DNA of 61,055 nucleotides, taken from positions 1-61,055 of IMG/VR virus record IMGVR_UViG_3300030376_005008; one strand, given 5' to 3'. Positions within the stretch are counted from its first letter, which is position 1. Every line of letters begins with the position of its first letter. The position numbers and the translations under genes are program-made. Shown in pieces: positions 4,520 through 56,730 of this stretch. Below the pieces are notes generated by a model. That model did no database searches and had not been told where the DNA came from. It worked only from the letters and a program-made list of their open reading frames with translations. The DNA is from a virus (lineage: Duplodnaviria; Caudoviricetes).

Positions 4520-5706
4520 CTGGTGGTATGATGGGTCGAACTTCTGATACTCGGATGTATAATCCTCATTCTGAATCTTCTCACATGTATCGTGAGAATC
4601 ACGAAGAGGAATCCACTCGAACTGGATACGAAGACCCTCGTGATGTTGATGCTAAGGCTGACCGTCGTCAGAAGAAAAAGGAAGCCGAGGAGAAAGAAAA
4701 CCGAAAGATTCGCCATATTAAGGTCCGCCGTCATCACATGGGTCTTGGTGAAAAAGAACCATCGGGAGAAATGCCTGAAGAAGAATCTGAGTTTAAGCCA
4801 CGTGAATCGCCATCAGAACCAACAATCCCTGCTGGTGCTGGTGGATTCCTAACAAGCCTTGCTGCTCAAGCAAAAGGTCCGGGCGCTGCCGCTGGTCAAA
4901 TGGTTCAGATGAGCGAGCCAATGGAGCATGCTTGGTCTGAGTTGTTGAAATCAAAGCGTAAGACCGAGAAGCAACGCAAGAAAGAACAACGCGCAAAGTG
5001 GCGACCATCCACTGGTAAGTTCAAGCGACCTCGTGGTGGATACACTGGACGTTCAGGAACATCTGCTCGTGCTAAGTTACTTTCTCGACACATCAAAGGT
5101 GGGCGTAAGTCAGGTCTAATGCTCCCTCATCTTGCTGTTGAGATGTCTCACCGTGGTGTTGCGTCCAAGCAACCAATGTCCAAAGACCCACAAGCATACA
5201 ATCAGTATCGTGCTTACCAAGAGCAGCAAAACATTCTTGGAAACGTCCGCCCACAACGTGGTGCGCGCCTTCCTTCTTCTCAGATTCGCATGCCGCAGGT
5301 TCCTAAACCTCGACTCAAGCCCCATCGCATTGCACCGATTCAGCCCCCGGCCATGCGTAGACCTCATCTTGTTCAACCAAAGATGCCCAGCATGGTGACC
5401 ATGAGCGAAGATGAACCTGTTAGTTCTGATATTCTGAAGGCTGCTAATCGCCATCTCCTAATTGAGATGCGAAATGAACTCAAGCAACTCAAAGAGATGA
5501 TGAAACGTCGCGACCGCGATAGTAAGAGGAAGGGTATGGGAGAGCCTGATACTGCTGGTGCAGCATCGACATTACCAAAATATCCCGGCAACAATCCAAA
5601 ACAAACTACTCGTCCTGAGGGCGCAACCGAAGATGAGAATGATGCTCGCACTTGGGGCCTCGACCCAATCGGAGGCATAGTTGGTCGAGGAGGAAACCGA
5701 GCATGA
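4516..5706 (+). CDS. Basic, disordered hypothetical protein carrying an EPMEHAWSELLK tag
   Basis: 396 aa, R/K/P-rich. Internal motifs MSEPMEHAWSELLKS (~4909-4953) and SSDILKAA. Confidence 0.75.
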   Translation: MTGGMMGRTSDTRMYNPHSESSHMYRENHEEESTRTGYEDPRDVDAKADRRQKKKEAEEKENRKIRHIKVRRHHMGLGEKEPSGEMPEEESEFKPRESPSEPTIPAGAGGFLTSLAAQAKGPGAAAGQMVQMSEPMEHAWSELLKSKRKTEKQRKKEQRAKWRPSTGKFKRPRGGYTGRSGTSARAKLLSRHIKGGRKSGLMLPHLAVEMSHRGVASKQPMSKDPQAYNQYRAYQEQQNILGNVRPQRGARLPSSQIRMPQVPKPRLKPHRIAPIQPPAMRRPHLVQPKMPSMVTMSEDEPVSSDILKAANRHLLIEMRNELKQLKEMMKRRDRDSKRKGMGEPDTAGAASTLPKYPGNNPKQTTRPEGATEDENDARTWGLDPIGGIVGRGGNRA

Positions 5707-8027
5707 GTTACATCATGGTGCGTAAGTCACTCATCATCAAGGGTGATGGTGTCTATGCGTATCATAACGGAGTCCCTCATCTTCTAACTGCGCCTCCACC
5801 TGAGGCTTTTGGTATTGGTCCCGATGGAATTGATGCACCTGCGTTTGCTCATCTTGGAGCCGCAGCACCTCATGCCAGTGGTCATCCCGGTATGGGTGAG
5901 TTACTTCCCGGTAAATTCCGTCGTGGTAAATACGGTGAAACTGCTTGGCATGATGGAGATTTTGACCACTTTCACGGCCATGATGGTGTATGGCATCAAA
6001 TCGGAAAAGCGCTTGAAGAGAGCGGTATGCTTGGTAAAGAACATCCTGAACTGGGTAAATTAACTCCTGATAATATCCTTCAACGTTCAATTACTGAGCA
6101 TAACAGAAAACACCATAGCGAAAATAATTTTCATGCGCTTCCTGATGTAGATAGCCCTGAGTGGAGAAAAATCAATACTGCTTCTTGGACTGGAAAAAGT
6201 GCGTCAGGAAGACCTAATAGAAATTCTGATGGAAAACTGATAACTGGTTTCACTAATCGCGGTGAAGACCGGGCCAAGATTGGGCATTTTGTTGAGTCAT
6301 ATTCCGTGCCTTACAATCAAGAACTTCAAGAAATTATGCTCCATACCCTTGGTCTTCAGCAATATGCACAAGAAGAGTGGCTTTCTCGCAATTACATTTC
6401 TATTGATGACCTCGATAGCGGCGCTCGTCGTGGAAAGAGAATCAAAGGTTATGGTGGTGACCGAATAGGGGACAAAGGGCAACTTCCTGATATGCATCTT
6501 GACGATAGACATGATGCTCCTCATCAACGTATTCAATCTTGGGAAGTCGCTCACCATCTTCCTGATATGTTTCATTACAAGTTAAATCGTCAACCTACGA
6601 GTTCTGATATGGGTAGTGCCATGCAACATATTGAGATGGCTATGGGGTCAATCGACCCTAACAAAATACCTGATGTGATGGTTCCAATCAATACGGCTCA
6701 AACTGCTGGTGGGACAGATTACAACATGCAGCCTTTACGCACTGCACTTCGTGACCCAACCATGAGGCAAAATCTTGTAAAAGAATTAGCAAGAACTCCA
6801 GCATTTCATTTTATGTTTGGAAGAGTAAAGGCTGGTGGCTCTCGCCCAACTCCTTCTTCGCGTATGTTCCAACATCTTTTGGAACAATTTGGCGGAGACA
6901 ACTTTGATGATGCTAAATCACACGTAACCGCTGGGCCACACATGCGAATGCCTGATGGTTCAAAAGCAGGAACCAGTGGAAAAGGCACACACACAAACGC
7001 TGCTAATTTCTTCACAAAAGTAATGCTTGGTGGGCCTCATGAAGAAGGGCCGAGTGCCATGCGTCATTACCATCCTGACGAAGATGTGCTTCAGTCATTT
7101 GGTGTTGATACGGGAAGTGCGGAAACTGCTGATGCAAGAAGACAAGCAGTTGAAGCAATAGGCGACCTTATTTCAGAATCACAAGGTCATCAAACTCGCC
7201 GTCCTGTTCCTGAAGATATTCCAACTGGTGCACTTAGGTCAAGTCGTGTTCAAGGTTATCCAGAACCTGATGCTCTTATTGACCGACTCCCTCCTCACAT
7301 TCCGTTTTCCACGGACCTTTCTATGCCCCCAATGGCTTCGGGACCACCCCGTGAGCGCACACCACCCACTCCTTCGGCGGCGCCGTCCCCGTCGAGAGAG
7401 GCCAGCCCTCCTCCGCTGGCGACCCCCCAACCTCCTACAAGGGCGGCACCTTCTCCTCAAACGAGATTGGACGACCCTAGATTTAGGCAACAACGTCCTT
7501 CCACTATGCAAGAAGAGTTCCAACGTCGTTTGGCTCGTGGGCCAAACCGAGCACAGCCGCCTGAACTTGTGCGCGTTCGTCGTGATGTTGGTGGCTATGA
7601 GCCTCAGCAACTTCGTCAGTTTATGCAAGCAAGTGGTATTGGTCCTCGACCCGGTGTCGGTGAACTTACCCCTCAAGAACAACAATTCCAACAAACATTC
7701 GGTGACCCTCGCCAGCAGTTGATTGAACAATATTTGAGAAGCCTTGACGAGTCACTCCCTGAGGCTGACCGTTTATTGAAGGCAATGGAAACCATGCAAC
7801 GAGATGATGCGATGGGTGACGACATGGTCATGAAACATGCCCTTACTCGTCCAGTTAATATCGCTGACAATCACGGTGTGAGCCACCTTGCTAAAATGGT
7901 AGGTCTAACTCCACTTGATGTTCGCTCTATTGCACACCAAACAGGTGATTGGAATCGTATTGCAAAGCGTCTTAATGTTTCTGACAATGTTGTGAAGGTC
8001 ATCAAAGTAAGCATCGGAGGTGTCTGA
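5703..8027 (+). CDS. Large hypothetical protein, His/Gly-rich with a Pro-rich linker and C-terminal HTH-like region
   Basis: ORF track gives 5652..8027. The likely start is ATG 5703 (ATGA overlap). C-terminus LAKMVGLTPLDVRSIAHQTGDWNRIAKRLNVSDNVVKVIK is HTH-like. Confidence 0.75.
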   Translation: MSYIMVRKSLIIKGDGVYAYHNGVPHLLTAPPPEAFGIGPDGIDAPAFAHLGAAAPHASGHPGMGELLPGKFRRGKYGETAWHDGDFDHFHGHDGVWHQIGKALEESGMLGKEHPELGKLTPDNILQRSITEHNRKHHSENNFHALPDVDSPEWRKINTASWTGKSASGRPNRNSDGKLITGFTNRGEDRAKIGHFVESYSVPYNQELQEIMLHTLGLQQYAQEEWLSRNYISIDDLDSGARRGKRIKGYGGDRIGDKGQLPDMHLDDRHDAPHQRIQSWEVAHHLPDMFHYKLNRQPTSSDMGSAMQHIEMAMGSIDPNKIPDVMVPINTAQTAGGTDYNMQPLRTALRDPTMRQNLVKELARTPAFHFMFGRVKAGGSRPTPSSRMFQHLLEQFGGDNFDDAKSHVTAGPHMRMPDGSKAGTSGKGTHTNAANFFTKVMLGGPHEEGPSAMRHYHPDEDVLQSFGVDTGSAETADARRQAVEAIGDLISESQGHQTRRPVPEDIPTGALRSSRVQGYPEPDALIDRLPPHIPFSTDLSMPPMASGPPRERTPPTPSAAPSPSREASPPPLATPQPPTRAAPSPQTRLDDPRFRQQRPSTMQEEFQRRLARGPNRAQPPELVRVRRDVGGYEPQQLRQFMQASGIGPRPGVGELTPQEQQFQQTFGDPRQQLIEQYLRSLDESLPEADRLLKAMETMQRDDAMGDDMVMKHALTRPVNIADNHGVSHLAKMVGLTPLDVRSIAHQTGDWNRIAKRLNVSDNVVKVIKVSIGGV

Positions 8028-9404
8028 ATGAAAGATGTCGGTGTTTTGCGAAAGCAGGATAATTTTGTCGGTGTTTTGCGAAAGCAAGTCGAAGGTGAAA
8101 TCCAAATGACACCGGGTGAGGGCGCTCGTTTTGTTCAAACATTACCCATAGGTAATAGAGGAAAAAGAGAACAAATGCCACTTCGTGGTGGTCGTAGTTA
8201 TGAAGAAATGCGTGATGCTCAAACAGCAGGTGAGAAAGCAACACAAAAATTACAAGATATTCGTAGTAAAAGAGTGCCACTTACTGAGCAAAGCGCAATT
8301 GACCCTGTTCAGTTTAGTGAAGCACAAGCCGCTCAAAGAATGGAACAAATGGATGCCCCATTGTATGAATCGACAATAGAAGAGGCACAACCACAAACAT
8401 ACAAAGAGCAGTATGGACTTCAAGCAGCACAACGTGCTCAACCCGGTCAAGAAGCAACGGCATACAGTCGTGGTGGATTAGGTGGGACAACAGGGCGAAC
8501 TGTTGGTGCTGGGCTTGCTGGTGCCTATGGTGGGCTTCAGGCTCTTCTTGCATTAAATCGAGCAGGTGCTTCGGGTCAAGATTTACCGAGTGCTCTCGGT
8601 GGTTCTGCTCTTCAAGGTATGACGAGTTACGGAACAGTTGCACCGACTGCTCAGAATATTGGAGGCGAGGTTGGAAGTAGAGTCGCTGTCCGTGGTGGAC
8701 AAGTAAAAGACCAAGGACAAAAAATTGCTCAAGGTGTAAAAGTCCAAGGACAAAAAATTGCTCAAGGTGTGAAAAACCAAGGTCAAGATTTTGCTCAAAG
8801 TGTTAGAGAACGCATGCGACCTGCTGAGCCGACTGTTGCTGGGCCTACTGGACCCCCTCCTCCTCGTTATCCACTCGCTCGCACCGGACCGTCGTATCTA
8901 GGTGAAACTCCTTTTACTCATACAGCACCTACGAGTTTCCAACAAAGACAATTTATGGGTGAAGCAGATGCACGAAGTCACGCAAATGAAAGGCTTCGTA
9001 GGCAAGGTCTTCCAAGGCTTCCTTCTTTGTTTAGTCCTATAGAAAAACCACCAGCAGCACCAGTTCTTGTTACGCCTCCAGTCGCTGGACCTATTGGTCC
9101 TCCACCTACTGCCCCAGTTCCTGTTGCTCAACCTGCTAGTCAAACTAATTTATATGATGGCAAATTCGCCCCTCCAGTCGCTGGACCTACTGGTCCTCCA
9201 CCTACACCTACACCTATTGGTCAAACCACATATGACCAATTTACACAACCTGCCGCACCAACTCCCGCCGCACCAACTCCCGCCGCACCAACTCCCGCCG
9301 CACCTAACTCTAACATGTTAGATGCTTTTACAGAGCAAGTAATAGCAGGGCAAAATGCAGCAGCCGCCAGTAGTTCCACTGTAAGCAAACCTCACGGAGC
9401 GTGA
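8028..9404 (+). CDS. Low-complexity Q/P/A/G-rich hypothetical protein
   Basis: 458-aa ORF with GGAGGTG RBS and several internal tandem repeats. Confidence 0.75.
   Translation: MKDVGVLRKQDNFVGVLRKQVEGEIQMTPGEGARFVQTLPIGNRGKREQMPLRGGRSYEEMRDAQTAGEKATQKLQDIRSKRVPLTEQSAIDPVQFSEAQAAQRMEQMDAPLYESTIEEAQPQTYKEQYGLQAAQRAQPGQEATAYSRGGLGGTTGRTVGAGLAGAYGGLQALLALNRAGASGQDLPSALGGSALQGMTSYGTVAPTAQNIGGEVGSRVAVRGGQVKDQGQKIAQGVKVQGQKIAQGVKNQGQDFAQSVRERMRPAEPTVAGPTGPPPPRYPLARTGPSYLGETPFTHTAPTSFQQRQFMGEADARSHANERLRRQGLPRLPSLFSPIEKPPAAPVLVTPPVAGPIGPPPTAPVPVAQPASQTNLYDGKFAPPVAGPTGPPPTPTPIGQTTYDQFTQPAAPTPAAPTPAAPTPAAPNSNMLDAFTEQVIAGQNAAAASSSTVSKPHGA
8036..8086 (+). repeat. Two exact 21-bp direct repeats (TGTCGGTGTTTTGCGAAAGCA), period 30 bp
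   Basis: Copies at 8036-8056 and 8066-8086, encoding VGVLRKQ twice. Confidence 0.9.
8703..8801 (+). repeat. 33-bp coding tandem repeat x3 (VKxQGQKIAQG)
   Basis: CCAAGGACAAAAAATTGCTCAAGGTGT occurs twice, followed by a degenerate third copy. Confidence 0.85.
9252..9305 (+). repeat. 15-bp coding tandem repeat (GCCGCACCAACTCCC; AAPTP) x3.5
   Basis: Directly visible tandem copies. Confidence 0.9.
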
Positions 9405-9408
9405 TTAA

Positions 9409-10893
9409 ATGGAAAAGCGCGAAGCCGAGATGAAGGAACTCGTTATCGAGATGGACAAGAAGATGTCCGCTCGCTCGTTCAAGTATTTCTTTGAAACAGT
9501 TCTCGGCTTCGATTATGCCTACCATCACGGTATGTGGGACAAAGGTCTTACAGACAATCGCTACTATTGTGTAAAAGCGTCTCGTGACCATGGTAAATCT
9601 GTTTTCTTCATGTCATATGCTCTGTGGCTCGCTGCTTTCAATCCGGGTAAACACATCATGATTTTCAGTCACTCGTTGGAGCAGACACTGGAACACATGC
9701 GTTTCATTCGTGGTAACATCGACACATCACCTTGCCTTCAAGAATTGAAGCCGGGTGGTATTCCATGGCGAAAGACCTACTTTGAGTTCACCAACGGTAG
9801 TCGTATCATGGCTAAGTCGGTCGGTGGAGGAACTCGTGGTTTCCACCCTGACATTGTTCTATGTGACGATATTCTTTGGGGCACAACTGGTTCTGAATTG
9901 CAACGTGCTGCTGATTGGTTCTATGGTGTATTGCTTCCAGTTCTTCACCATACGGGTCGTTTGATGATGGTGGGAACGCCGTTTAGTTACAACGACCTCT
10001 ATGCTCAGTTGGAAAAGACCGAGACATTCCAAGTTGAAACATATCCAGCCATCGACAAAGAAGGCGAAGCACTGTGGCCTGAGCGTTGGAGTTTGGAAGC
10101 ACTTGACCAACGTCGAATGTCCATGCCAGCGATTCAGTTTACTCGTGAATATCTCTGTGAGCCGATTCACGACGTTGCGAGTATGTTCCCGATGGAACTA
10201 CTTGAGAAAGCACGTGACCATGACCTCAAAATCCTCGACCACGCAGAGCGTGATTTCAACGAAGAAGGAGAAGACATTGGTGTATTCGGTCAACATTTCA
10301 TTGGCTGGGATACAGCGATTGCATCTGACAAGAACGCTGACTTTACCGCTATGACTGTAATGCGAACAATCCCTGATGAAGACATTAAACAGATTGTTGG
10401 TATTGTTCACGAGAAGGGTATGTCGTCTATGGCGCAGAAGCGTCAGATTATCATTCTCAATAACAAGTTCCAACCTGACCTCATCGAACTTGAGGGTAAC
10501 AACTTCCAGCGAATGTTTGCTATGGAGTTACAAGACATTCGGCAAGACATTCCAATTCGCACTTTCATGACTACGCGCACGAAGAAAGAAAGCCTATTCA
10601 TGTCGCTTCTTCTTGCATTTGAGCAAGGGCAAATCAAGACACCGTATGGCGACGACCGCTCTCGTCGTTTTACTCATAAGTTGGAAGAAGAACTCAATCG
10701 CTTCGGAATGCAGAAGAGCGGAAGGCTTGAGTCCGTAGGCACGCACGACGACTTGGCTATGTCACTTGCGTTGGCGAACTGGGCAACTAAAGAATTCCGT
10801 GGAAGTGTTGTTATGCTTGATGATTATATGCCCGGTTTCGATGAATGGATAACGGGTAAACCTCGTAAGAAAGATGGATGGATGATACCATGA
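9409..10893 (+). CDS. terL: Terminase large subunit
   Basis: Walker A ASRDHGKS, Walker B IVLCDD, coupling motif VGTP, and RNase H-like nuclease acidic residues IGWDTA, DFTA, HDDLAMSLALA. Confidence 0.95.
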   Translation: MEKREAEMKELVIEMDKKMSARSFKYFFETVLGFDYAYHHGMWDKGLTDNRYYCVKASRDHGKSVFFMSYALWLAAFNPGKHIMIFSHSLEQTLEHMRFIRGNIDTSPCLQELKPGGIPWRKTYFEFTNGSRIMAKSVGGGTRGFHPDIVLCDDILWGTTGSELQRAADWFYGVLLPVLHHTGRLMMVGTPFSYNDLYAQLEKTETFQVETYPAIDKEGEALWPERWSLEALDQRRMSMPAIQFTREYLCEPIHDVASMFPMELLEKARDHDLKILDHAERDFNEEGEDIGVFGQHFIGWDTAIASDKNADFTAMTVMRTIPDEDIKQIVGIVHEKGMSSMAQKRQIIILNNKFQPDLIELEGNNFQRMFAMELQDIRQDIPIRTFMTTRTKKESLFMSLLLAFEQGQIKTPYGDDRSRRFTHKLEEELNRFGMQKSGRLESVGTHDDLAMSLALANWATKEFRGSVVMLDDYMPGFDEWITGKPRKKDGWMIP

Positions 10894-23654: not shown

Positions 23655-23689
23655 ACAGGAATTGAATTAAAAAAAGGAGATGATGAAAA

Positions 23690-24865: not shown

Positions 24866-24900
24866 TGGAGATAACGAGAATAATACGGAGATGATGAAAA

Positions 24901-25362: not shown

Positions 25363-25374
25363 AGGTGACAATAC

Positions 25375-25761: not shown

Positions 25762-25766
25762 TTTGA

Positions 25767-26084: not shown

Positions 26085-26098
26085 GGGCGGTGATTTAG

Positions 26099-26272
26099 AT
26101 GGCAAAGTCAGTTACAATTCTTGGCCCTTTTCCGCCAAAGAACTTTGCTGATACCACACTAAGAACAGCAATCGCTACAGACATTAGCACTGCTATTGGT
26201 AGCAACACTTGTGTGTCTTGTGACCCGCATACAGTGCTTGGAAACATCTACATTATTGTGACTACAAGTTGA
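26099..26272 (+). CDS. Small hypothetical protein, 57 aa (not in ORF track)
   Basis: MAKSVTILGPFPPKNF...GNIYIIVTTS*, with GGTGA RBS. It fills the gap exactly. Confidence 0.7.
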   Translation: MAKSVTILGPFPPKNFADTTLRTAIATDISTAIGSNTCVSCDPHTVLGNIYIIVTTS

Positions 26273-50400: not shown

Positions 50401-53400
50401 TGGACAGAAGTTGCAATACACAAAGAGTGACGGAACCACTGCTGAGTTTGATTATACTGTTCGTTCAGGCACAACAAACAACGCTACTACGATGAACAAA
50501 ACCAATCTAATCGTTGTCCCAACGACCACAACTATGCCTCAAAACGGCGCTGTTTTACGACTCACAAGGGAGTATTCGACTGCTGCTGCATCTTCTCTAT
50601 TCAATGATGGTAAGACCAGTGTGTTGACACGGACACTACCACAGATGTTGAGTGGCACAAGGGATACAAACAGCCTCCATACCCCTGATGCTTTCCTATG
50701 TATGTGGCATCCTAATCTCGGTCGCCCACATACTTTCTACTCCGATGGGTCAAGAACTTGGGGTAACCTCACCAGTGACCGAGCGGTCAACAAGGCTGCA
50801 TACAATAGTATGCCTGAGCACTTTGAGACAGTTCACTATCATGGTGCAAACTATGCTGTCAGCCATGGTCCATTCAACCTTGATATGAATACACCAAAGC
50901 CACCGACTAAGATTTCTCTTGCTGTTGCAAGTGTTGGAGCCACGTTCTTAACATTCTCAGGTAACGCTGCATCAGAAATGTCAGCAGGAACTCTGTTGTT
51001 TACATCAGATGGTTTGTTCATTGGTAAATCATCAGGCGCTGTGCATTTCTCAGGAACTACTACAGCGGGTTTCACAACTAATTTATTCAACAATCCGGGT
51101 GTGGGTGACTTCATTTACAAAGATGCAGATGGCTCTGTGGAAACTGCCACGAACATTCATGCTATGTCAGGATACGAAGCACAAGGTAGCGGCACAGTCA
51201 TGCTCAGTCACTACTGGCCTTGTGGTAGTCGAGGTGGTCTTCTCAATAGCCGTCTTGACGGTTATGCTGCATGGTCTGCTGCATGGCATGTTCCTCGTGC
51301 ATATACTGCTGCTGGGGCTACATACTGGACGGATGCTGATGATGATGGCTCTTATGCAGTAAGTAGTGGAATTACAACTGCTGCTGCTTCAACAATTACA
51401 ACGCGCCGCTATCCTTTCGGCTATCGTTTCGGCCTTCGCCAACCATGGAACAGACCGCAATGGGGGCACTACGGAATGCGAGCCTATCAAGAGGCCGCTA
51501 CACACGCAAGTGCAAGTAACTTCACAGTGGGTTACAAGGCTGGTCCGTTAGTTGAATATGAGACGCAGAGTTGGAATTATGCTGGAGGGGCTGGTCTTGC
51601 AAACAGCACTCTACCCGTCACCTATGTCGGTATGATGGAACGGCAGACCAACGCAGCGGCTATGCTTGGTGTAGACAAACCTGAGTGGCAAGTGCGATAC
51701 AGTGACGGTCGTCGTATGACGAGAAGTTACGGATGTCCTGTAAGGACACTAAGGGACACCAATAGTGTAGCCACTGCTACTCTCACAGTCACAGACGGTG
51801 ATGCCGCGAGTGGTATGAGTGAGAAGCAAACTATCGCAATTCAATCAACAGATGGCACAACGAGGATGTATACCTTAGTAGATGATAACGCCACTACTGT
51901 CGCAACGGGGGATGTTCTTGCTGCATCTTCTGACACAGGGGCCAGCACTGCTGGTGCTGACCTTGTCGGTGCTATCGCTGTAGCCATCAATCTAACTGGC
52001 TCTGCGTCCACACAGAATGCATATTTGGTGCAACTTAAGGCAGCGATAGAGCATGCGAATGGTCACAATGGTAAGATTACTGTCTCAGCAGTTCCTACTG
52101 AGGCTAACGGTAACCAAGCCATCACGCTCACACAAGCAAAGGCAGGTCTTGCGGGGAATACTACAATCACTGAGAATGTGGATAATCTAACTGAGGCTGA
52201 TTTCAGTGGTGCTAAAGCAGTGCCTCGTGACTGGTGGGGTGATAACGAAGCGTTGGGTGTCACTACGATTGATGCTGCCGTGGGATACTATCTTGTGGAT
52301 TGGTGGGGTAACACGCGTGGCGAAGATGTGCGTCGCGCACCAGTGCGTGGCTTCGGTATTCGCCCAGCATGGGATGCCGGTGATGCATACGAGTATGACC
52401 GCACCAACAACAGAACACCACACGCGAGGATTTGGAACAACGGTAAGCCTATCTTCAATGTCAAGGGTGTGTTAGATAGTAGTGGTAATCTTCTATCTGC
52501 CACCACTGCATCTATCCCTCGTTTCGGTGGAGCAAGGAACAGCACAAACAACAATGATTCCAACTCTCTCGTTGATGTGTTCGCGCCTACTAATGCTATG
52601 CGTGTAGGTGACATGGGTGGCGGTCGTGGTGTGCGTTACCCAACACAGTTCAACGAAGACCTATTGGTTGAATTAAGCGATGTCTACGAAGCATCCGGCC
52701 TTGTTCTCTCTCATCATACTGCTGAACCAGCGTTTGGTCAAGGATATGTGCGCCCACGAAACGACGCGCTACAATCTGATGAACTAAGGCGTGGTATCAG
52801 TGCTCGACTTGAGATTGACGAAGATGGTCTTCTCAAGCCTGAAGCAGTAGTCAGTGACCGAGTTGAAACGGTTAGTGGAACAAGCGTGCATAAAGACGCA
52901 GTATCTCGAACCAGTCCACGTATTGGTCTTGACGCAGAGGCGCTTGAGGCAATTTCAAGTGGTGTTGACAGGGACTATGTTGCTATCAACACCGAGGCTC
53001 ACAGCCTACACGCTGACCGTGGTGTAGGTCAACGTGTCATTCTTCATGGTGGTATGCAAGCAGGGTCGCAGACACTTGGTGATTATGACCTCAGAAGCCT
53101 ATCATTCGCCGCACAACCACACGGTGGTGTAATGCGATTCAGTCATACTTCTAACGTCAAACCAATGGGCGGTTCATACATCATCGAATCACGCTCATTC
53201 GTCAACCCATTCGATGATACAGGTTGGGGTCGTAGTAGTTTAGCCGGTGGAGAGAAAACAAGCAATCCATATCAAACCACAACATACGACAGCACAAGCG
53301 CACAGACAAACTACAAGGATACCAGTGTCAAGTTCATGCTACGACCAGTGCGTCTGCTTGATAACCAACATATCGAAGTATTCCGACCTGAACACAATCT

Positions 53401-53842
53401 ACACAGCAGTAGTCCACAAGACGGTGGCACTTTCTTTTCAGCAACTGCCGGTGGTAAGTATGGTCTGTTTACCTATGAAACAACCAGCGCACGCGCCGCT
53501 GATGGGTTCTTCATAGGTGGTAGTAATAATCCAGCAAGCAACGCACCATATCAACCAGTATACCTAATGGAGACAAGTAGTGATACTGTGCCAGTTGCAA
53601 AGGGACCAAAACTCCCCGGAACTGAAGCCACGGGCTTTGATAAGACCACACTGAAGAGCACAGTTAGTCGCCTTATTATCACTGAAAATACACTTCAGCA
53701 CTTCCGTAGTGACGCGCCTCGTAATACGGGTAATGAGAAGGATTTCACAGTCAAACCGCGCTTTAGTCAATCATTACACAGCAAGGGGCATAAAGAAGAT
53801 GTTACCTACAATACATCAGACCACAGCGGTGATGCCTCTTGA
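35462..53842 (+). CDS. Giant (6126 aa) tail / adhesin-like virion protein with an N-terminal LamG/concanavalin-like domain
   Basis: ALLFDGVTDSV...TIEAWV...HVVGV...RLYVNG...IYLGG...FRGVIESLHIS is a LamG-like pattern. 18.4-kb uninterrupted ORF in the tail module with repeated beta modules. Confidence 0.8.
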   Translation: MPAILQSNHALLFDGVTDSVIVPQGSHRGVGNDDASGNRSAGDILGDSASGDRGPSVVGDLFRNTITIEAWVTPDCGGIIALKEDQFSLEMGTVDTPGPAKFSVRLETQGGVNTYQVSTASLTSNGYSGTVYPTPDFGGVSDSYNRFDSDKDDATTLNLNHRHLYHVVGVVEPGFIRLYVNGLLMAQEKIPFQTSIIQSNNHIYLGGKGGQFRGVIESLHISNNFENEMLSPSAPLVQDSTALLYRFEEPINPIQNEYQIASISSASNLSAINISTSDAAALASALTGTTVTTGTIVFTDSPYSTGNYSVHDNVTGAGASPATRSIPHVPYNLLINPGAINRETNKPNQSPPERVRLHNINVSTGAMLVSSIHLDFATSATGDGLRPVLHSRSAATGDDYFVVVAADLLIEGGSGRPYQPPHLASQIIDRTGQMILDESNFEQHGIAYSSRMATTANDSNNPFAVSWPTSLDESFQVGHSGRHIKNHVNGHHYLRMLPKASDEMLDQQIGTSDIINLMYDDAARGIENQVPINSEMEYYREVASMEVVSVQDSSMAFEIVDNGLTGATREIIAIGGSGTKTITAEATFNPYPFFLKGPVPVSAETLDETERTHHLRPSRESRVAVLSVPSLASHGFASFIEVHYNALDLTGVSMGKTKPMLMVEKTVPAGSVQTAGSSFTDATCDYNNDPTIAMDATTNVRPGMRVSGTGIPAGAFVVSVTNSTTFELSAATTGGSKTNQTLTFTPAYIADIVAADLVNPATDTTLFSPGGMITMRMEEGNLNTLQMPHAMIGDVSEGYESDDELDERYTPQYYTTMSDEPRKTPQIITASHTNSDIHNSTFNRLLIGGSKVTKENIADTGRRGVFTDIGSPSDGQFDIPITRSASPVHEMFDIIDNHIQASSDPFILYIQPSDRTRTMQLNHLRAALDRPGEANTAQVLYMMSKGVLRSVTESDADNGGRFTSLQIVGTSSLVNTASTSEIGSGSPDSHVVKEIDPHAPVVTVSLGGPGQGAFDTKPSFDPSPLSRLPYSTRRGFSVMGQSVRIEPGGTQFITVRALNNATPDLQSWGTYPFPKKGRLFLKNGASAEYSSKSGVSFMFTDGTAGDGKFTLADGQDLGTFKAWSIASGLVPEAKDIVGSTFNDATCDTDHSAGSGTSFGSNPKIIQMDSTTNVKVGMTVSGTGIAAGSIVTQIDSATLFRVNLDTTATNNNQTLTFTLVGENFSLGEILLGDGHFYIENSAADGTTVNDRMFQSMDTATHDYQLGTQFASTRALVEIPLFAGQFFESAAESIFPGPDNSLKMHVDATMTAHTYNPSPVGRRFPDKAPADRAAKAAYAYSMERAEFTKRTTILLRAKDETANYHLYVNNPSAFPAAVTSASAYHNVDNVVLYRQAFLSNGEWILYDNDPASDGYLQFKNEDWAHSENFLNSHAPGMALLIADGYESERVIPIFSDDETLSSDFEGRGEYYHDQSSVKTQGGNVDYGLRQYVSAVEFKAGPSTNPHSPRVKSKRAAGVIRGVTPLMNQGNFSGVFTVTLSEEDAALFPAIDVNLDSGTVDFDTGDMFYTVEITLPDGTAQKCIYWGDGKATFSHANLLTFGSATVTTSEIPKSTIILETIESRPSLPNFLNETHSSFILGQPLKLTKKSFDPLSDFTSVQLRNNVNIARSDRPGNSSSWTIAAVPNANQITLGAPSGVHAGTLQFDNASWQGQFSAKVGDKIYAEPTVASGASNVLAVGSVMYLGEVTAISEVVINGSATVIGLASLADITGITGSVEADLGAMIAAGTVYLRVGVEELLTEDSEAILNRSWLFPYAQGGLREGDTVWANMTYNNPHAVEGLFAKSRGVLNEAMVCNVFNGGEGALNNNPRDSLPLENFLIGNSCYETAVNYVQHVNKTVELNYTNLGLSQPPTVAYLDPYLSNAGHARVLLFDVAHDREFIAFQDLHMQVQSSPMHAQIGWSRDVIGADLTRTQANLGGNHSPYSTQIDVAAGFPSQNPFVRSSSRSRFMESAYAHNRANYISSKLINPVDSSSGSGATTVPKVLLNNLDYSWLYGKAHQHYVHTGFEQGITLGEIALGDSVLPRTKEAVVSPKFADKLHPYTRKGRSAEHNLTVALREHRSPNFKTSIFSTASTIRDPSTLFDTPDGTRVIPAFLALKGIRSSSLDLSNHTEANQTSGRRGIKHLKQWTDMEFTRRLSIDLGEVGVRDGVTDVEAAAREVVRLINQAAAPNARTHVRRPNNNYPAENVVLDTDISSTPSLTRIDAAVPHVNADFAATGSTFDPADWWNDSSSEKPDKGTHMGYVRAHLGRVVQDSRGREGYSIIIHSTIPGATGRNFCVWLDNSKGQTPYEPEFLIGHGGRFRTFWCQPDEVSGENMHPAPMPLNKHGRPFAPITTLKQYTIPDNAGQQVSPSDEFGEAGKSSDESADPVNRAISTFIGAGKTHNTVNTESLEAEGFVTSLVSGLRTGTGAIGRVNFGGLVASGIPGFAPDAGEWGFGRRGDKRFSAYYGGVNVTDNAITVASCTTTANSTQVTFTNVATTHAIVEGMAVSGTGIASGTKIASITNATTFQLDVVATASGTVTLTFTPQAPVKYTPHVPESEVLNQNIGNTDLYGFRFIDHRGIGHGIRFVYRQFGQKFALENTELPDSINEEVMVYFDDRDVGQGGFTIGRHMHGSGDATGRFPASDSNATHVPWRGNHWNGVPSHNAAYDCEVTYDASAKTLTIEPQTPYNACPHHDMLGYMGFPLKNGVVQVSDPFNHSTMKGSQGHMFSYTSRTRATGSGTHVFYGVTGANFVASHKTDGSGGVTTVTHLFGDGANGEIRALISSTANWTCLITDELMAAVTTAVINAPALMSPNINSEEGLTFDCTHMYAADGKTFGEWGVDPEAIRIRAYNPAREIQPLSQFFEASIHKDMGIPAAHVEYGEISSLIVNADGITLPASSRAASNGEIDAGLRNPCGYIPRTVMQVRTKGKGSNTNTQSPVLVDTKNNPIDVSTWKKGLIGENYTADSGDHILPNIDNPTVQITKTDIYGSSAPPTTLSISTGEMWYFTRPAGEESATLSSKAKIVSFGDISTLYYGEKPALVTGIHSAGGGVSQTQFSILELQIGTADTINWPTADSATNAAMQRYGGTSRYGITGKRSLGSVNSVPQVFFRGAKDSTDHSVPLFFGGGFSGVVLDINDGTDTDYSSFNTHPYANGPTGCAGIQHANEVLSSHAMIDCNAIMAFFPGTPLLNQHRGSITPPFSNQDNVLSPDIKRGEHTVAANHPNAAPYTAGVHIQVPSPFVLRFAHPTARYGDAAAGTENKTTYLIYGPGQPFPFTQEVADSSGSHNVNEPHPGRAIVAGGSFSKVPHGGAAQYLPNHIENDQQHYMPMTSAYQVARGRFHWRQTLNWEPAIGKPNTGILYQRPEQGRMYGDMVNPLGDTPSTSNIADFRVLHPTRHALFMGGGMVSNSDWTWHMDGGYHPGGSWMDNQVSMNPAHPNGNTLVAKVAASNCSVHPTAFRVAGTLATRVMYGSSASFQVHTPDADDVDMEYIVIDGTRCQNGEELATIIGAGINTFPGAGALKAMGGTFMPSMGNALRQDRYGWKEFTVSAYRNDGSGVSGSGVDTTAGVTNSDRRTSATCYLDVATTLAAGEQVPASGWLRTKTLYTVAVSGGNSTAPAYAPYHTRILYTSNGSDYFIRFYLGYNYLTGTKGFETAETWHDIETAAASTGDPNDRIKDLIDTNDINLPTVAANDDILVWSKAGTFSYNNENASTRDHMTNVHFSGLHDAIDRTRPTGVVGWAGERYSYLNSLLVGSSYAAGLGAWHTALGFSPYGNANSCMTTLSHLPHTAPMPNSGESIRPDESYTHFPGTGGDPPYDSLGSMTNEARVTSSYEAYVPGYADVSGFNSTPTYYSEENIPSELRHPQGVSARAFLVVAYESELPLVAKYDRDGITCTGDWLLAEQQGNKAKAGTTRWDERIHGQDRFTCTANAGPNVEALIVGSTSTPSVSDYTAANGLDAAPFDDTFFLHDAISADTSLENATPCRAETGDLFYDLDHSIGTEFSATATGQRNVVNDFYAEPSNRPSAFFANTDTGKSFFIGDVNGYDFYRRSPAKNFNIEHAIWKRMDGGSLSLPTINARGLGAIPWINRVKSNTEYTMGEKLYGNVRFSFETTNSAMMPILQAQELAHPQLAARHPHELRNILEIPNEELQFEAMEVIDDTGQTHKIEGGSPFGVIIRAFQTAGERLASGLQPANANSGIEPNLKVRLPNPDAIPGNIIVRSGYDRLQAYQNENIGDGGMLHPDLGASHVGHLFDNAIKGPRYGPTMGEVGWEHISQGESFPDSTRDGWTGATQDNPIQSSYELHDRTLFFHVTKMGHSHTERYPVTYNHTSGVVNQSLTVSSFSGTTLTASATVTSAVFDADFASKERSDNRRFLRLSTATETVVVSYTGISGATFTGVIGDIDFDQFLLDNPPATSTINISPSYYVPAGSTRFFAARRLRDHAEVSGNSPDMAHTLYFDGDQNTLLHTRYSKPQLTPMPYPRMGHHFVNATMPMLPGHWAHPAYQGLYSRSRSENRVSRADEDYITLKDNIGLVDTSLSSTITDKMHPLNPPLRVGSLTALPSGPSDIHGGAFTLMFETKVKYDGYGILASKGTAGDMNKAGGHSIVLEAAGNYTLDRHFPDPAEVGAYQIVIQPNVRKQQIAGFHANHSSATSLPNGSAVELTSQQVNLVVGIKYDSERGSAIGGVTLVLAEATLADVRGCEVFINEVILDHDPDHGGQFTNIPPLLTYNALGVQGNQSPPFTRSTHAYHVGMFSDSTPGRTLHIPWWSIMHKVAPDDSTATGFRHLSLCRIDNYYEFCRASFGSIGCQLTLAGYPSIYPDMYSKVLANASLSPAITVQSTSFTNATCDYNNDPTIAHDDDDGQIKAGMLVTGTGIPAGAFVASVTSDTEFELSASTTGGAVTNGTLTFYGIVVDDATHLPEVPYYGQKLQYTKSDGTTAEFDYTVRSGTTNNATTMNKTNLIVVPTTTTMPQNGAVLRLTREYSTAAASSLFNDGKTSVLTRTLPQMLSGTRDTNSLHTPDAFLCMWHPNLGRPHTFYSDGSRTWGNLTSDRAVNKAAYNSMPEHFETVHYHGANYAVSHGPFNLDMNTPKPPTKISLAVASVGATFLTFSGNAASEMSAGTLLFTSDGLFIGKSSGAVHFSGTTTAGFTTNLFNNPGVGDFIYKDADGSVETATNIHAMSGYEAQGSGTVMLSHYWPCGSRGGLLNSRLDGYAAWSAAWHVPRAYTAAGATYWTDADDDGSYAVSSGITTAAASTITTRRYPFGYRFGLRQPWNRPQWGHYGMRAYQEAATHASASNFTVGYKAGPLVEYETQSWNYAGGAGLANSTLPVTYVGMMERQTNAAAMLGVDKPEWQVRYSDGRRMTRSYGCPVRTLRDTNSVATATLTVTDGDAASGMSEKQTIAIQSTDGTTRMYTLVDDNATTVATGDVLAASSDTGASTAGADLVGAIAVAINLTGSASTQNAYLVQLKAAIEHANGHNGKITVSAVPTEANGNQAITLTQAKAGLAGNTTITENVDNLTEADFSGAKAVPRDWWGDNEALGVTTIDAAVGYYLVDWWGNTRGEDVRRAPVRGFGIRPAWDAGDAYEYDRTNNRTPHARIWNNGKPIFNVKGVLDSSGNLLSATTASIPRFGGARNSTNNNDSNSLVDVFAPTNAMRVGDMGGGRGVRYPTQFNEDLLVELSDVYEASGLVLSHHTAEPAFGQGYVRPRNDALQSDELRRGISARLEIDEDGLLKPEAVVSDRVETVSGTSVHKDAVSRTSPRIGLDAEALEAISSGVDRDYVAINTEAHSLHADRGVGQRVILHGGMQAGSQTLGDYDLRSLSFAAQPHGGVMRFSHTSNVKPMGGSYIIESRSFVNPFDDTGWGRSSLAGGEKTSNPYQTTTYDSTSAQTNYKDTSVKFMLRPVRLLDNQHIEVFRPEHNLHSSSPQDGGTFFSATAGGKYGLFTYETTSARAADGFFIGGSNNPASNAPYQPVYLMETSSDTVPVAKGPKLPGTEATGFDKTTLKSTVSRLIITENTLQHFRSDAPRNTGNEKDFTVKPRFSQSLHSKGHKEDVTYNTSDHSGDAS

Positions 53843-53955
53843 CCAATCTTGAATTGTTCACAATTTCACTGATAGGTGGGTTCTTCATCGGTATTTGCAT
53901 AGGTCTGCATATTGCTATGAGTCGTGAAGACGCTGCACGTTGGAGTGATGTCTGA
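53839..53955 (+). CDS. 38-aa single-TM peptide (not in ORF track)
   Basis: TTG start overlaps the giant gene stop (TTGA) after a GGTGA RBS. Sequence LTNLELFTISLIGGFFIGICIGLHIAMSREDAARWSDV. Its stop overlaps the next ATG (TGATG). Confidence 0.6.
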   Translation: MTNLELFTISLIGGFFIGICIGLHIAMSREDAARWSDV

Positions 53956-56543
53956 TGCTTCCAATGGACCTCGCTATGCGGTTGCTGAAAGAACAAATAG
54001 ATTATGAGAATCAAATGGAACTTGCCCCTCACGAGCAACTATGGAACGATGAGGCTGATGAACACCTTAAAACCAAAACAAATGAATTATTTGATTATGC
54101 GATAGCGCAGGGGATTGACCCCGGTGATTTATTGGACGCATGGCACGATAGAGCCTCTATGGTTGAAGGGCTTGATTATGGTGAGCCGGGAAGTGAATTA
54201 GGATTTAGAGCGCACGCTGTTGACCCTTCACAATGGAAGAAGTTAGCCAGCGAACCAATGGACCTCGCTATGCGGTTGCTCAAACGCCAAACAGAATTAG
54301 GAGAGCACCGGGGCTTTGAAGATGAAGCATTTTCATCTCATGGTCCGGTAACTCATTATCATGCAACAAAAGCACCGGAAGATGCTGAATCCATAAAGGG
54401 ACATGGTATTCGACCTGCGGGAAATTATGCTACGCACAGTGGTGGTAAAACAAAGTCAATATATTCTTATTTAGTAGATAATATGGATTTAGAAAACACA
54501 GAGCCTTTGATTTGGGCTACAGGTGAAGGACAGGAGTTACCTATTGAATATGCAGGGACTTATAATGATAAATGGGTAGGAGAGCCACAATTTGATGAAA
54601 GTGGGATGTTAATTCCCGGAACAGGCCCATCTCGTGAAAGAGAGTTTCAAGAAGGGGGGATGTTTGGTATCAGGGGTGGTGATATAGATTGGGAAAGGTC
54701 GCAATCTCCCATTTATAGACAAGGTGAGGAGTTCTATATTCACAATCAGCCTATTCCAAGAGAAAAAATTATCCCTATGCCTGTCCAAACAGGCGAATCA
54801 ATGGACCTCGCTTGGCGGTTGCTCAAGATGTCTGAGGCTGAAATGAGGGAAGCGGGTTATCTTGATTATTACAGTCCTGAAAATATTGCGAATTATTATC
54901 AAAAAAGAAGAATGCGATATGGTAGCCGATTACCAAGTAATCTGCGTAATGAGATTATATCAGAACAATTAGCCCGGGGAAATAGGATGTTAGCGGCAGG
55001 TATACCTGAAGAACTAATGTATGCACATCACGATTATCCACCACTTTTAGAAGCAAGAATGAATGTTCCCGAAAGAAAATTACATTTATTACCATATGAA
55101 GCAGACGAAAGAAGTCAAATTGCGGACTTAGAAGATGTAGCAAGTAAAATAGATATGAATCCACGCGCTGTTTACAACAATCAAAGATTGTTTAGGCAAA
55201 TGATACCTGAAAACTTCGCGATGGAAGAGCCTGAAATAGAGCAAGAGCAAATTATTGAAGAATCACCAATCCCGGGTATGGTTTTCATTAACGGTGTATT
55301 AAGCGTTGACCCCCGAAATCAAAAAAGCGAACCAATGGACCTCGCTTGGCAGTTGCTCAAACGCCAACCGGGACAACCGGAACTTGGTGAGTTTCATCCC
55401 GATTTACCTTCTTCGCAGGGGCCGATAGTAGCGTATCATGGTAAAGGAGTAAACGAAGATAGGCGAAGGAAGTTTCAAACTGAAGGTATTCTACCAGTTG
55501 ATACACCAGAGGCTCAAATAGGCAGTGGTAGATATGTGCAACAACAACAAGGTAATGATGCGTATTGGAATCGTGATATTCCAGCAAATGTTTCTGTAAC
55601 TGGTGATTTGAGCACAGCACAGGAGTTTGCTACCCACGGAACCCGCGTAGATGGAAATCCATTGCAAGGTCGTCCTGATTCAGAGGAGGTGGTTTATGGA
55701 GTAAGAGCAGGAGCATTAGCGAACCAACTTCCTATGGACGACCCGCGTCGTTTATCTGCCCAACACTTACCGGAGGTTGGAAGAGAAGGAGGAGGAGCAA
55801 AAACTCACCGTTTCATAGCGGGAGGTATAGCACCAGAGGCGCTGCATGCATTTTCTGGACGAGATGCGCAAAAACATGCAGGTGGACATTGGGCGCGAAA
55901 CTTAGGACAATTCCAAACACATGGTCCAGACAAAGTTTACTGGGATTCATTGGATGAATATGAATATGAAAATCCCCGACCACGGGAGTTTATTGACGAC
56001 TACTTTAGGGAGGGAAACCCCGCATACAAAGAGTGGTCTGATGCGCAAGGGCGAGCAGCATTTTCAGGAAGAGAACAATGGATAGATGACCAAGTTTCTA
56101 ACTGGCAAGCACAGCAAGCACAGCAAGCACAATTACAACAACAACTGCAACTACGACAACAGCAGCAGCAGTCAATGATGAACCCTGACCCGTCTGGACA
56201 AACGACTCTGAATACGTTTCAAACAGGCGAACCAATGGACCTCTCTTGGCGGTTGCTCAAGGAGAAGAAGCCTGACCCACGCCTGAAAGCGGCAGGAGTG
56301 AGTGGATATAACAAACCGAAGCGCACGCCAAACCATCCAAAGAAATCACATGTGGTTGTAGCAAGGTCAGGTGGTAAGGTCAAAACAATTCGATTCGGTG
56401 AACAGGGCGCAGACACTGTTACAGAAGATAATCCAAAAGGTAAGAGAGCAAAGAAGCGAGCGTCGTTCAAAGCCCGACATCAGAAAAATATCAAACGAGG
56501 ACCAATGAGTGCGGCATATTGGGCGGATAAGGTGAAGTGGTAA
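53955..56543 (+). CDS. Modular polyprotein: five MDL(A/S)(W/M)(R/Q)LLK-tagged cassettes, including two ADP-ribosyltransferase-like domains and a C-terminal basic viral domain
   Basis: Five tag copies. ART-like YHAT..SIKGHGIRP and YHGK..FQTEGILP..SVTGDLSTAQEFA. C-terminal KTIRFGEQGA...ASFKARH...SAAYWADKVKW. Confidence 0.85.
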   Translation: MLPMDLAMRLLKEQIDYENQMELAPHEQLWNDEADEHLKTKTNELFDYAIAQGIDPGDLLDAWHDRASMVEGLDYGEPGSELGFRAHAVDPSQWKKLASEPMDLAMRLLKRQTELGEHRGFEDEAFSSHGPVTHYHATKAPEDAESIKGHGIRPAGNYATHSGGKTKSIYSYLVDNMDLENTEPLIWATGEGQELPIEYAGTYNDKWVGEPQFDESGMLIPGTGPSREREFQEGGMFGIRGGDIDWERSQSPIYRQGEEFYIHNQPIPREKIIPMPVQTGESMDLAWRLLKMSEAEMREAGYLDYYSPENIANYYQKRRMRYGSRLPSNLRNEIISEQLARGNRMLAAGIPEELMYAHHDYPPLLEARMNVPERKLHLLPYEADERSQIADLEDVASKIDMNPRAVYNNQRLFRQMIPENFAMEEPEIEQEQIIEESPIPGMVFINGVLSVDPRNQKSEPMDLAWQLLKRQPGQPELGEFHPDLPSSQGPIVAYHGKGVNEDRRRKFQTEGILPVDTPEAQIGSGRYVQQQQGNDAYWNRDIPANVSVTGDLSTAQEFATHGTRVDGNPLQGRPDSEEVVYGVRAGALANQLPMDDPRRLSAQHLPEVGREGGGAKTHRFIAGGIAPEALHAFSGRDAQKHAGGHWARNLGQFQTHGPDKVYWDSLDEYEYENPRPREFIDDYFREGNPAYKEWSDAQGRAAFSGREQWIDDQVSNWQAQQAQQAQLQQQLQLRQQQQQSMMNPDPSGQTTLNTFQTGEPMDLSWRLLKEKKPDPRLKAAGVSGYNKPKRTPNHPKKSHVVVARSGGKVKTIRFGEQGADTVTEDNPKGKRAKKRASFKARHQKNIKRGPMSAAYWADKVKW

Positions 56544-56580
56544 TATGAAACCAATGGACCTCGCTTGGCGGTTGCTCAAG
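53961..56580 (+). repeat. Six dispersed ~30-bp direct repeats, consensus CCAATGGACCTCGCTTGGCGGTTGCTCAA(G/A)
   Basis: Copies start at about 53961, 54255, 54798, 55332, 56232 and 56551, with at most 3 mismatches each to the consensus and variable 0.3-0.9 kb spacing. Confidence 0.95.
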
Positions 56581-56730
56581 GTTGATGATGAAATACCGGA
56601 TTTTAGTGATGAGCCTGTTGACCAATGCGAAATGTGCAACAAATATCTCCATGATTCAGATTACCATGTCCTAAATGACCACAATTTTTGTAGCGATTGC
56701 TATAATCAATTGGCTGAGGAGGGAATGTGA
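56545..56730 (+). CDS. Small Zn-finger protein with an N-terminal PMDLAWRLLK tag
   Basis: MKPMDLAWRLLK then CEMC...FCSDC. AGGTGA RBS. Confidence 0.8.
   Translation: MKPMDLAWRLLKVDDEIPDFSDEPVDQCEMCNKYLHDSDYHVLNDHNFCSDCYNQLAEEGM

Follow-up and report, generated by a model that had tools for sequence, protein, structure and literature searches.

Why would a tailed virus place one short peptide at the start, or at the inner joints, of proteins that otherwise share no relationship, and what could such a peptide do? This question is raised by the IMG/VR record IMGVR_UViG_3300030376_005008, a stretch of 61,055 nucleotides (nt) that was analysed as the complete record (the window) and is estimated to represent 57% of a genome. 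Magroviruses, the viruses of Marine Group II (MGII; Poseidoniales) archaea, are described in PMC5434244 as having ~100-kb genomes, a halovirus-like head module and a chaperonin, and because these traits match, the window can be assigned by its gene content to a magrovirus-like archaeal tailed virus. The element in question is an 11-residue peptide, hereafter the tag, of which the window holds 11 copies. An original prediction, made from the DNA alone, had proposed that this peptide is a portable capsid address combined with a protease site, by which the virus packages effectors and injects them into its host.

A portable peptide tag in the structural strand

All 11 copies named in the original prediction were recovered at their places (Table 1), every one of them in a coding frame of the structural strand, with five copies starting stand-alone genes and six lying inside longer proteins. 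The tag comes in two flavours, an N-terminal one, M-x-[AP]-[FM]-[DE]-x-[AS]-W-x-φ-L-K, at residues 2-12 of genes 11756, 26584, 31668, 53955 and 56545 (genes are named by their first position), and an internal one, [GS]-E-P-M-D-L-[AS]-[WM]-[RQ]-L-L-K, in genes 4516 (as a variant), 10878 and 53955 (four further copies). The variant, EPMEHAWSELLK, has one residue more between W and LLK than the other tags, and a tag is also present at the orthologous position in three relatives (G001, G003 and G004, see below). The five copies claimed for the interval 53955-56543 are indeed there, although two of them have Met instead of Trp.

This recurrence far exceeds what composition would give, as the core pattern GCNTGGNNNNTNYTNAAR occurs six times, always on the plus strand, while 100 shuffles averaged 0.14 occurrences and never reached six, and LLK is found 17 times in 19,800 window residues where 4.0 are expected. 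As had been proposed, the tag marks the module joints in polyproteins and the extreme N-terminus of stand-alone proteins, where it starts at residue 2-3 in 5/5 cases, with an in-frame stop 3-4 codons before the ATG in three of the five. The carriers overlap or abut structural genes by 0-10 nt and are therefore likely to be co-transcribed with them; gene 26584, for example, is wedged between two conserved genes, with an upstream overlap of 4 nt and no gap downstream. Their placement in a "late structural operon" holds with respect to the strand, with "late" being deduced from strand and tight packing.

The argument that dispersed copies spell the peptide with different codons was correct for part of the set. 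The sequence quoted for 11592-11615 is correct to the letter and occurs once in the window, and the four dispersed copies differ in their codons, but the six tags in 53955-56730 are almost identical at the DNA level (GAA CCA ATG GAC CTC GCT TGG CGG TTG CTC AAR). Among the 10 canonical tags, 113 codon pairs are synonymous but different and 189 are identical. Given that the N-terminal tags sit at start codons and that frame and strand specificity is strict, selection acts on the peptide, and the tag is a real, portable element.

Distribution of the tag among related viruses

The window (G000), four relatives with a completeness of at least 90% (G001-G004) and a fifth, more distant one that is likewise near-complete (G005) were scanned with a position matrix that was built from the tag copies themselves and is hence circular for them, the other frames and the other strand serving as controls. 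The matrix counts 11 tags in G000, 12 in G001, 13 in G002, 6 in G003 and 12 in G004, with none elsewhere in these genomes at ≥12 bits, and 13 tags in G005 at ≥10 bits. The expectation that such a scan would find the motif at N-termini and module joints of diverse cargo was thus borne out, at 6-13 tags per relative. Strict cores number 4, 9, 3 and 5 in the four relatives, all on the gene strand, and the reversed control pattern gave none. In greedy sets of open reading frames (ORFs) of at least 70 amino acids (aa), 57 tags lie in 315 structural-strand ORFs and none in the 227 opposite-strand ORFs (54,673 aa), where an even spread would have placed about 17. The opposite strand carries the chaperonin and, in the magrovirus layout as given in PMC5434244, the replication genes.

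Across IMG/VR, the strict internal 10-residue pattern was found in 19 stretches and the N-terminal pattern in at least 100, and the strict pattern had no match in 185,579 species genomes. Among 78 new loci chosen by the N-terminal pattern, 73 carry 200 tags at ≥20 bits, 141 of which have a Met at most 3 residues upstream. In the genome-collection scan the N-terminal pattern matched three times, including two orthologous Glaciecola proteins that start M-x-AFDLAWRLFK. These look-alikes, each in a large protein (L126 5071-5106 and L127 3204-3239, both on the minus strand), are probably chance, with ~0.5 chance matches expected by a rough estimate, and were not counted as true tags.

In the haloarchaeal siphovirus HVTV-1 no tag of ≥9 bits is present in 91 of 102 kb, and 20 homologs of the 862-aa polyprotein of the window carry tags among the 120 matches listed, the rest sharing its C-terminal basic domain only. 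On the strength of these two sequence comparisons, the tag belongs to this archaeal-virus lineage. Since the portal, the protease and the major capsid protein (MCP) are the only genes of HVTV-1 that BLAST detects against this lineage, presence or absence in that virus cannot point to a receptor of the tag. Evidence that links the tag-bearing lineage to a host comes from G005 (L128), a 106-kb contig in an assembly titled uncultured Poseidoniales archaeon, whose MCP and protease show 61% and 39% identity, respectively. On the G005 contig C2 (L226-L231), twelve tandem small genes at 4454-10291 of the minus strand each start MTAFDxAW..K.

Core genes are collinear among the relatives and the tag carriers occupy variable slots; in G001, for instance, nothing fills the slot of gene 26584 and the flanking genes adjoin each other. 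The majority of carriers in G001-G004 cluster in an island that opens the structural-strand module, upstream of the gene 153 homolog, and most ORFs of this island begin with the tag or with a degenerate form such as MTAFSDAFYILK. As the window begins exactly where the island of its relatives lies, it has probably lost its own.

Cargo diversity and cassette exchange

The cargo was predicted to be unrelated, and its 58 segments do fall into 36 BLAST-unrelated groups. Pfam assigned no family to any of 20 tagged ORFs of the relatives (20 of 27, omitting G001 10001, 10355 and 12983, G002 6781, 7215 and 92715, and G003 62202), and Pfam and PHROGs detected no family in the tagged proteins of the window except for sub-threshold zinc-ribbon/RING matches and phrog_7595.

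The modules of the 862-aa polyprotein, which is encoded between the giant tail-region gene and further structural-strand genes, reappear in other settings. Module 1 recurs inside a 911-aa protein of G004, and module 3 inside the G004 homolog of gene 4516, where three additional modules, each bounded by tags, have been inserted at the tag position and lengthen the protein from 396 to 947 aa. In G002 the homolog of gene 10878 has module 5 fused to it, and module 4 stands alone behind an N-terminal tag in P0397-P0400 and is internal in other proteins. In P0391 the order is tag, module 4, tag, zinc finger, the zinc finger being the one that the window encodes in its separate gene 56545. Because the same modules are thus found stand-alone, internal and fused across relatives, the unit of exchange, as read from these comparisons, is the tag plus its downstream module, and such cassette exchange may well be favoured by the near identity of the tag DNA within a polyprotein, in addition to the role of the peptide.

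Many other marine viruses also possess the basic C-terminal domain phrog_7595 (KPKRTP..HP.KSH...IRFG), joined there to untagged proteins of the LysM, NUDIX, protein-kinase, zeta-toxin and nucleotidyltransferase types (P0020-P0120), and the domain may itself be a virion-incorporation or DNA-binding module. Zincin-like HExxH modules, for example HEAIHAAQD, occur in tagged polyproteins of relatives (G001 9100, G002 91906, G004 89694 and P0002); by regular expression and by eye, HExxH motifs are present in 6 tagged ORFs of G001, G002 and G004, and the motif makes these modules candidate processing peptidases or effectors. The tagged proteins of the window have no zincin-like HExxH module, the only HE..H match being HEPSH in gene 26584. 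A four-member cargo family (G001 14461, G002 3935, G003 50736 and G004 94501) looks protein-kinase-like by eye, with a Gly-rich loop followed by V-I-K, and was not detected as such by Pfam.

Predicted structure of the tags and of module 4

Alignment A3, consisting of the tag 4-module 4-tag 5 piece of the window and 14 other rows, provided the 15 input rows for an AlphaFold2 (AF2) model, which reached a pLDDT of 70.3 with a folded core at residues 41-300. Both tags are short helices (16-24 and 318-324) with a pLDDT below 50, and as AF2 places them in flexible linkers around the folded core, the tags are predicted to be exposed rather than buried. The helical hydrophobic moment is 0.5-0.65 for four of five tags, which would make them amphipathic as helices.

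Module 4 itself is predicted to adopt an ADP-ribosyltransferase (ART) fold, although a fold alone shows no activity. Every listed top Foldseek match belongs to the ART superfamily, each weak (best E 4.7e-3). VIA-align gave middling values, with Z 8.8, a root-mean-square deviation of 2.8 and 88 aligned residues against Tpt1/KptA and Z 5-7 against ART toxins, and the Atlas leads are likewise ART-like, all scoring < 0.9. Conserved columns [HR]-G, N-V-S and R-A-G are visible in alignment A3, and module 2 aligns as a diverged paralog of module 4. Of the co-folding experiments that had been suggested, the one with the protease-scaffold protein (alignment A2) was run with a 46-residue tag window (alignment A1), and its ipSAE of 0.00, from two runs without controls, speaks neither for nor against binding.

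The L-L-K motif and the prohead protease

In the 22 internal tags of alignment A1 (out of 43 tag windows), L-L-K is invariant (22/22), E-P-M and A are almost invariant, and K is followed by a variable residue. Outside the tags, LLK is found at eight sites of the window, and six of these are conserved in relatives: aa 32 of the MCP (ELLK/A or ELLK/S, the slash marking the putative cut), aa 17 of the protease, aa 16 and aa 1334 of the 1842-aa protein encoded between portal and protease, aa 75 of gene 15796 and aa 708 of gene 5652. The LLK of gene 1346 is not conserved in relatives, and the eighth site, at aa 5790 of the giant protein, was outside this comparison. Three consecutive head genes, those of the 1842-aa protein, the protease and the MCP, encode leaders of ~15, 18 and 34 residues that end in LLK and a small residue, where a rough estimate would expect ~0.3 such proteins among 43. 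The LLK of the MCP (aa 32-34) and that of the protease are conserved in 5/5 relatives, the former also in G005, and the MCP site aligns with GGMSK/AD of HVTV-1, while both LLK sites of the 1842-aa protein are kept in 5/5 relatives at ~39% overall identity. The protease, whose likely start is a GTG at 22305, has its LLK at aa 17-19 and FKILK at aa 168-172; its alignment A2 holds 59 of 270 listed homologs, selected for an N-terminal protease architecture, and its AF2 model (pLDDT 75.5) puts the LLK in a low-confidence, predicted flexible lead-in (residues 1-20, pLDDT < 50).

Proposed function and its alternatives

We favour, tentatively, the reading that the tag is a capsid-targeting and prohead-protease cleavage tag analogous to the capsid-targeting sequence (CTS) of phage T4. 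The tag would act as a short amphipathic helix by which a protein, or each module of a polyprotein, is marked for the assembling procapsid, and it would end in a site of the HK97-type (S78) prohead protease, φ-L-K, with the cut after K. Tagged proteins would be made along with the head proteins, and the helix would dock them on an internal component of the head, possibly the capsid protein, the protease or the latter's scaffold part. The protease would then trim the leaders of the MCP and of the 1842-aa protein and cut the cargo after L-L-K, setting single modules free in the head, and the cargo, comprising ART-fold enzymes, zinc-ribbon proteins and very basic proteins, would exit with the DNA and act in the Poseidoniales (MGII) host cell. 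Units of tag and module would be cassettes that the viruses swap, fuse and split. With more reserve still, we consider it possible that magroviruses carry a programmable cargo-loading system, in which an 11-residue helix ending in the prohead-protease site would address any protein to the capsid, cassettes would be exchanged, fused and split with the help of the near-identical tag DNA, and each virus would pack and inject its own set of host-takeover enzymes, ART-fold proteins included.

A number of points weigh against this capsid-targeting reading. What stands of the predicted capsid address is a portable, exposed peptide that is confined to the structural strand and ends in the L-L-K of head proteins, while encapsidation, cleavage and injection of the tagged proteins are steps that we infer by analogy (as we do docking). 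The tag is missing from the scanned part of HVTV-1 in spite of its homologous MCP, protease and portal. The carrier island of the relatives adjoins the switch to the replication strand, where early genes could lie too, and as most of their carriers are in that island at the module start, late expression is not assured. Upstream, the internal tags also conserve [GS]-E-P, possibly as a helix cap or as another site of cleavage. The proposed match between the tag end and the capsid protein and protease stands in so far as LLK is conserved near both N-termini, but K is followed by a variable residue in the tags and by A, S or G where LLK is conserved in structural proteins, and the protease motif is family-wide: [F]-x-I-L-K, which includes the "SLLK" of the window, precedes the protease core, and its K is present in at least 90% of the 60 diverse homologs compared. 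Equally family-wide is the F-x-I-L-K that closes the core, and since the FKILK of the window forms the confidently modelled last β-strand of that core, it need not be a cleavage site; the LLK/ILK "sites" of the protease may, judging from the model, be structural. Finally, the tags of G005 end in IVK, ISK, VTK and similar (φ-x-K) while its MCP keeps DLLK/AD, so that a strict co-variation of tag ends with the MCP site is not seen there. The literature search found no statement on the residue that HK97-type proteases prefer before the cut (P1).

The strongest alternative, which we nevertheless regard as unlikely, is that the helix serves to dock the tagged proteins on something other than the capsid, such as a viral hub, a virus factory, the viral chaperonin, or a host protein or membrane, and that the carriers act unpackaged in the infected cell. 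An exposed amphipathic helix in linkers would suit such docking, as would the location of the main island, which opens the structural-strand module in a region that could hold early or host-takeover genes, the 13 tags of G005, which are all N-terminal on small proteins and have loosely φ-x-K ends, and the fact that the virus encodes a chaperonin. However, docking outside the capsid leaves unexplained the invariant L-L-K that the tags have in common with the leaders of the MCP and the 1842-aa protein, the insertion of carriers between head and tail genes without spacing, and the stringing together of unrelated modules with a tag at each joint, and the chaperonin as partner is disfavoured by its presence in 12 of 26 magroviruses only, as counted in PMC5434244. 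A MIM1-like tag, which would dock on an MIT-domain ATPase, is not favoured, as the spacing fits only partly.

Less probable again is a processing or pro-peptide signal that has no targeting function and at which a viral or host protease would divide polyproteins into their modules and activate enzymes by taking off an N-terminal pro-peptide, candidates being the prohead protease outside heads and the HExxH modules of the relatives. It would account for the polyprotein architecture with its conserved joint and for the HExxH modules in the tagged ORFs of G001, G002 and G004, and metallopeptidase domains have been proposed in PMC5512222 to process polyvalent phage proteins. On the other hand, a protease site rarely needs a conserved 11-residue helix, most tags are on single-domain proteins that require no separation, and the carriers in the window, with its ~57% of the genome, are without a zincin-like HExxH module. 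That the repeats are mainly DNA-level recombination joints for module exchange, the peptide being a tolerated linker, is highly improbable, for although the six tags in 53955-56730 are nearly identical over 33 nt and shuffling occurs exactly at tags, the dispersed copies keep the peptide with different codons and the N-terminal tags are fixed to start codons, frame and strand.

Relation to known systems

The closest parallel to the proposed capsid-targeting function is offered by T4, in which IPI-III and Alt carry a 10-20-residue N-terminal CTS that the prohead protease gp21 removes (PMC5694885, PMC9024508, PMC5512222), Alt being a packaged and injected ADP-ribosyltransferase (PMC5512222, PMC5694885). 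In both cases a short peptide is found on otherwise unrelated, often basic or host-modifying proteins, ART included, and the carrier genes are variable; the T4 peptide ends in a motif that also marks the propeptide of the capsid protein, as the tag would if the L-L-K that it has in common with the MCP is a cleavage site. The tag differs from the CTS in its sequence, in a protease of the S78/HK97 type (HK97/XkdF) instead of gp21, in a putative cut after Lys and not Glu, and in its archaeal host; moreover, it would serve a function deduced by analogy, and it is repeated at every module joint of polyproteins, a layout that is not described for T4 in the parts of the T4 literature cited here. As the protease matches Peptidase_S78/S78_2 and not the gp21 family, the tag does not belong to the T4 system, and the relation is one of functional analogy, not of homology.

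N-terminal targeting is known from other phages as well. In phiKZ and SPN3US many head-internal proteins have N-terminal propeptides that are cut at a common motif, and the protease cuts itself (PMC5694885), and the first 30 residues of P1 DarB suffice for capsid targeting (PMC9024508). The tag resembles these systems in its N-terminal position and, for the giant phages, in a possible trimming at a shared protease motif, yet the propeptides of the giant phages, as portrayed in that literature, are mostly > 100 residues long and have no single shared 11-mer, and no tag-delimited polyproteins are described there. Polyvalent proteins (Iyer et al. 2017), known from phages and conjugative elements, are multi-module effectors with two to fifteen effector domains that are encoded beside virion genes, include ART, metallopeptidase and ParB-like modules and are predicted to be co-delivered with the DNA and released by proteolysis (PMC5512222). 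The 862-aa protein, with five modules that include two ART-fold paralogs and a basic domain, is of similar build, but no Pfam domain of the polyvalent repertoire was detected in the scanned carriers, in which the ART fold comes from structure only, and one conserved helix at each joint and on stand-alone proteins is not a feature of polyvalent proteins as PMC5512222 presents them.

The basic idea that a short helix on a flexible linker may address cargo to a shell also has cellular counterparts. Encapsulin cargo-loading peptides and the encapsulation peptides of microcompartments are short and amphipathic, sit on flexible linkers at termini or between domains and address diverse cargo to a shell, which in encapsulins has the HK97 fold. 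The MCP of the virus is likewise of the HK97-fold family, while binding of the tag to its shell is conjectural; unlike the tag, the cellular peptides are mostly C-terminal and involve no protease step.

The main texts of the magrovirus papers that were searched mention no polyprotein, N-terminal motif or ADP-ribosylation, and a full-text search for "archaeal" together with "capsid targeting" returned no archaeal-virus paper, as judged by title and the start of the abstract. Thus, while the principle is known from T4, P1 and giant phages, no earlier description appears to exist of the tag, of its placement at polyprotein joints, of a link to an HK97-type protease or of its presence in archaeal viruses. 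Given that host takeover by archaeal tailed viruses is almost unknown, and that magroviruses, which have no cultured host, are among the most abundant viruses of ocean archaea, a conserved tag would label the likely virion-delivered proteins of an abundant virus group directly from sequence, including dozens of dark-matter families and ART-fold enzymes. If programmable loading is true, magroviruses would be the first archaeal viruses with a described system for capsid targeting and effector delivery, based on a polyprotein strategy not known in tailed viruses. Confirmation would extend the capsid-targeting principle of T4 to HK97-type proteases and to Archaea, and would add a new layout of tag-delimited polyproteins with cassette exchange as well as a portable loading tag for HK97-fold shells.

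Genomic context of the window

Gene identities were taken from Pfam and PHROGs scans, and nearly all long ORFs of the window are on the plus strand (Table 1). The MCP shares 33-34% identity with its counterparts in the haloarchaeal siphoviruses HVTV-1, HCTV-1 and HCTV-5 and has more than 600 relatives in IMG/VR, and sequence searches of the PDB with the MCP and with a protease profile gave no match. Two marine metatranscriptome runs cover small shares (0.17 and 0.06) of 22293-32292.

Table 1. Features of the window; the slash marks a putative cut
Feature	Position	Strand	Details
Variant tag EPMEHAWSELLK, 12 residues, aa 134-145 of 396-aa basic protein (gene 4516-5706)	4915-4950	+	17.4 bits
Terminase large subunit	9409-10893	+	Profile match
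Internal tag APIDLAWRLLK, gene 10878-11750	11583-11615	+	Followed by 44-aa Cys4 zinc-ribbon-like tail
N-terminal tag SPFEVSWYLLK, gene 11756-12343 (195 aa)	11759-11791	+	Tagged ortholog in G002
HNH-type endonuclease, 405 aa	12417-13634	+	phrog_5046
Portal protein	13634-15397	+	PF04860
1842-aa protein, portal-protease interval	16734-22262	+	GELLK/S aa 14-19; DVLLK/A aa 1332-1337
Prohead protease S78 with helical scaffold-like C-terminal part	22293-23654	+	Pfam Peptidase_S78, S78_2
Major capsid protein (MCP)	23690-24865	+	SELLK/AD aa 30-36
N-terminal tag RAFDLAWSVLK, gene 26584-27036 (150 aa)	26587-26619	+	Motif matrix
N-terminal tag TAFDKAWSILK, gene 31668-31874 (68 aa, zinc-ribbon-like)	31671-31703	+	Zinc-ribbon matches below Pfam cut-offs; homolog in G005 at 35% identity
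Tape-measure protein	33027-34166	+	Pfam/PHROGs
6126-aa protein	35462-53842	+	Single family match: Laminin_G_3, aa 134-223
862-aa polyprotein, five modules set off by five tags at aa 2, 100, 281, 459, 759	53955-56543	+	Motif matrix; 33-nt tags begin at 53958, 54252, 54795, 55329, 56229
Module 2 of 862-aa protein, aa 111-280	54285-54794	+	Diverged paralog of module 4, alignment A3
Module 4 of 862-aa protein, aa 470-758, predicted ART fold	55362-56228	+	AF2 model, Foldseek, VIA-align
Module 5 of 862-aa protein, aa 771-862, basic domain phrog_7595	56265-56540	+	E 1e-33
N-terminal tag KPMDLAWRLLK, gene 56545-56730 (61 aa, Cys-rich)	56548-56580	+	Motif matrix
Cpn60/TCP-1 chaperonin, truncated by contig end	60066-61055	-	Pfam/PHROGs

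The 1842-aa protein, which has no match in Pfam or PHROG, may be a large head-internal protein; it shows ~39% identity in relatives, and in HVTV-1 its slot holds proteins of 1048 aa and 1313 aa ("zeta toxin"). The 6126-aa ORF sits after the tape-measure and distal-tail genes and presumably encodes a giant tail or adhesion protein, with homologs of 5660-5687 aa in G001 and G002. The chaperonin agrees with the thermosome/GroEL genes reported for some magroviruses. The portal protein contains a Cys-rich, zinc-ribbon-like insert at aa ~86-106, with a sub-threshold DZR match, and a terminal repeat at aa 480-520 that is rich in Gly, Pro and Met and includes copies of GGGMPMPQ. The HNH gene is inserted between terminase and portal and is kept in 4/4 close relatives, and HVTV-1 has an HNH gene at the same position.

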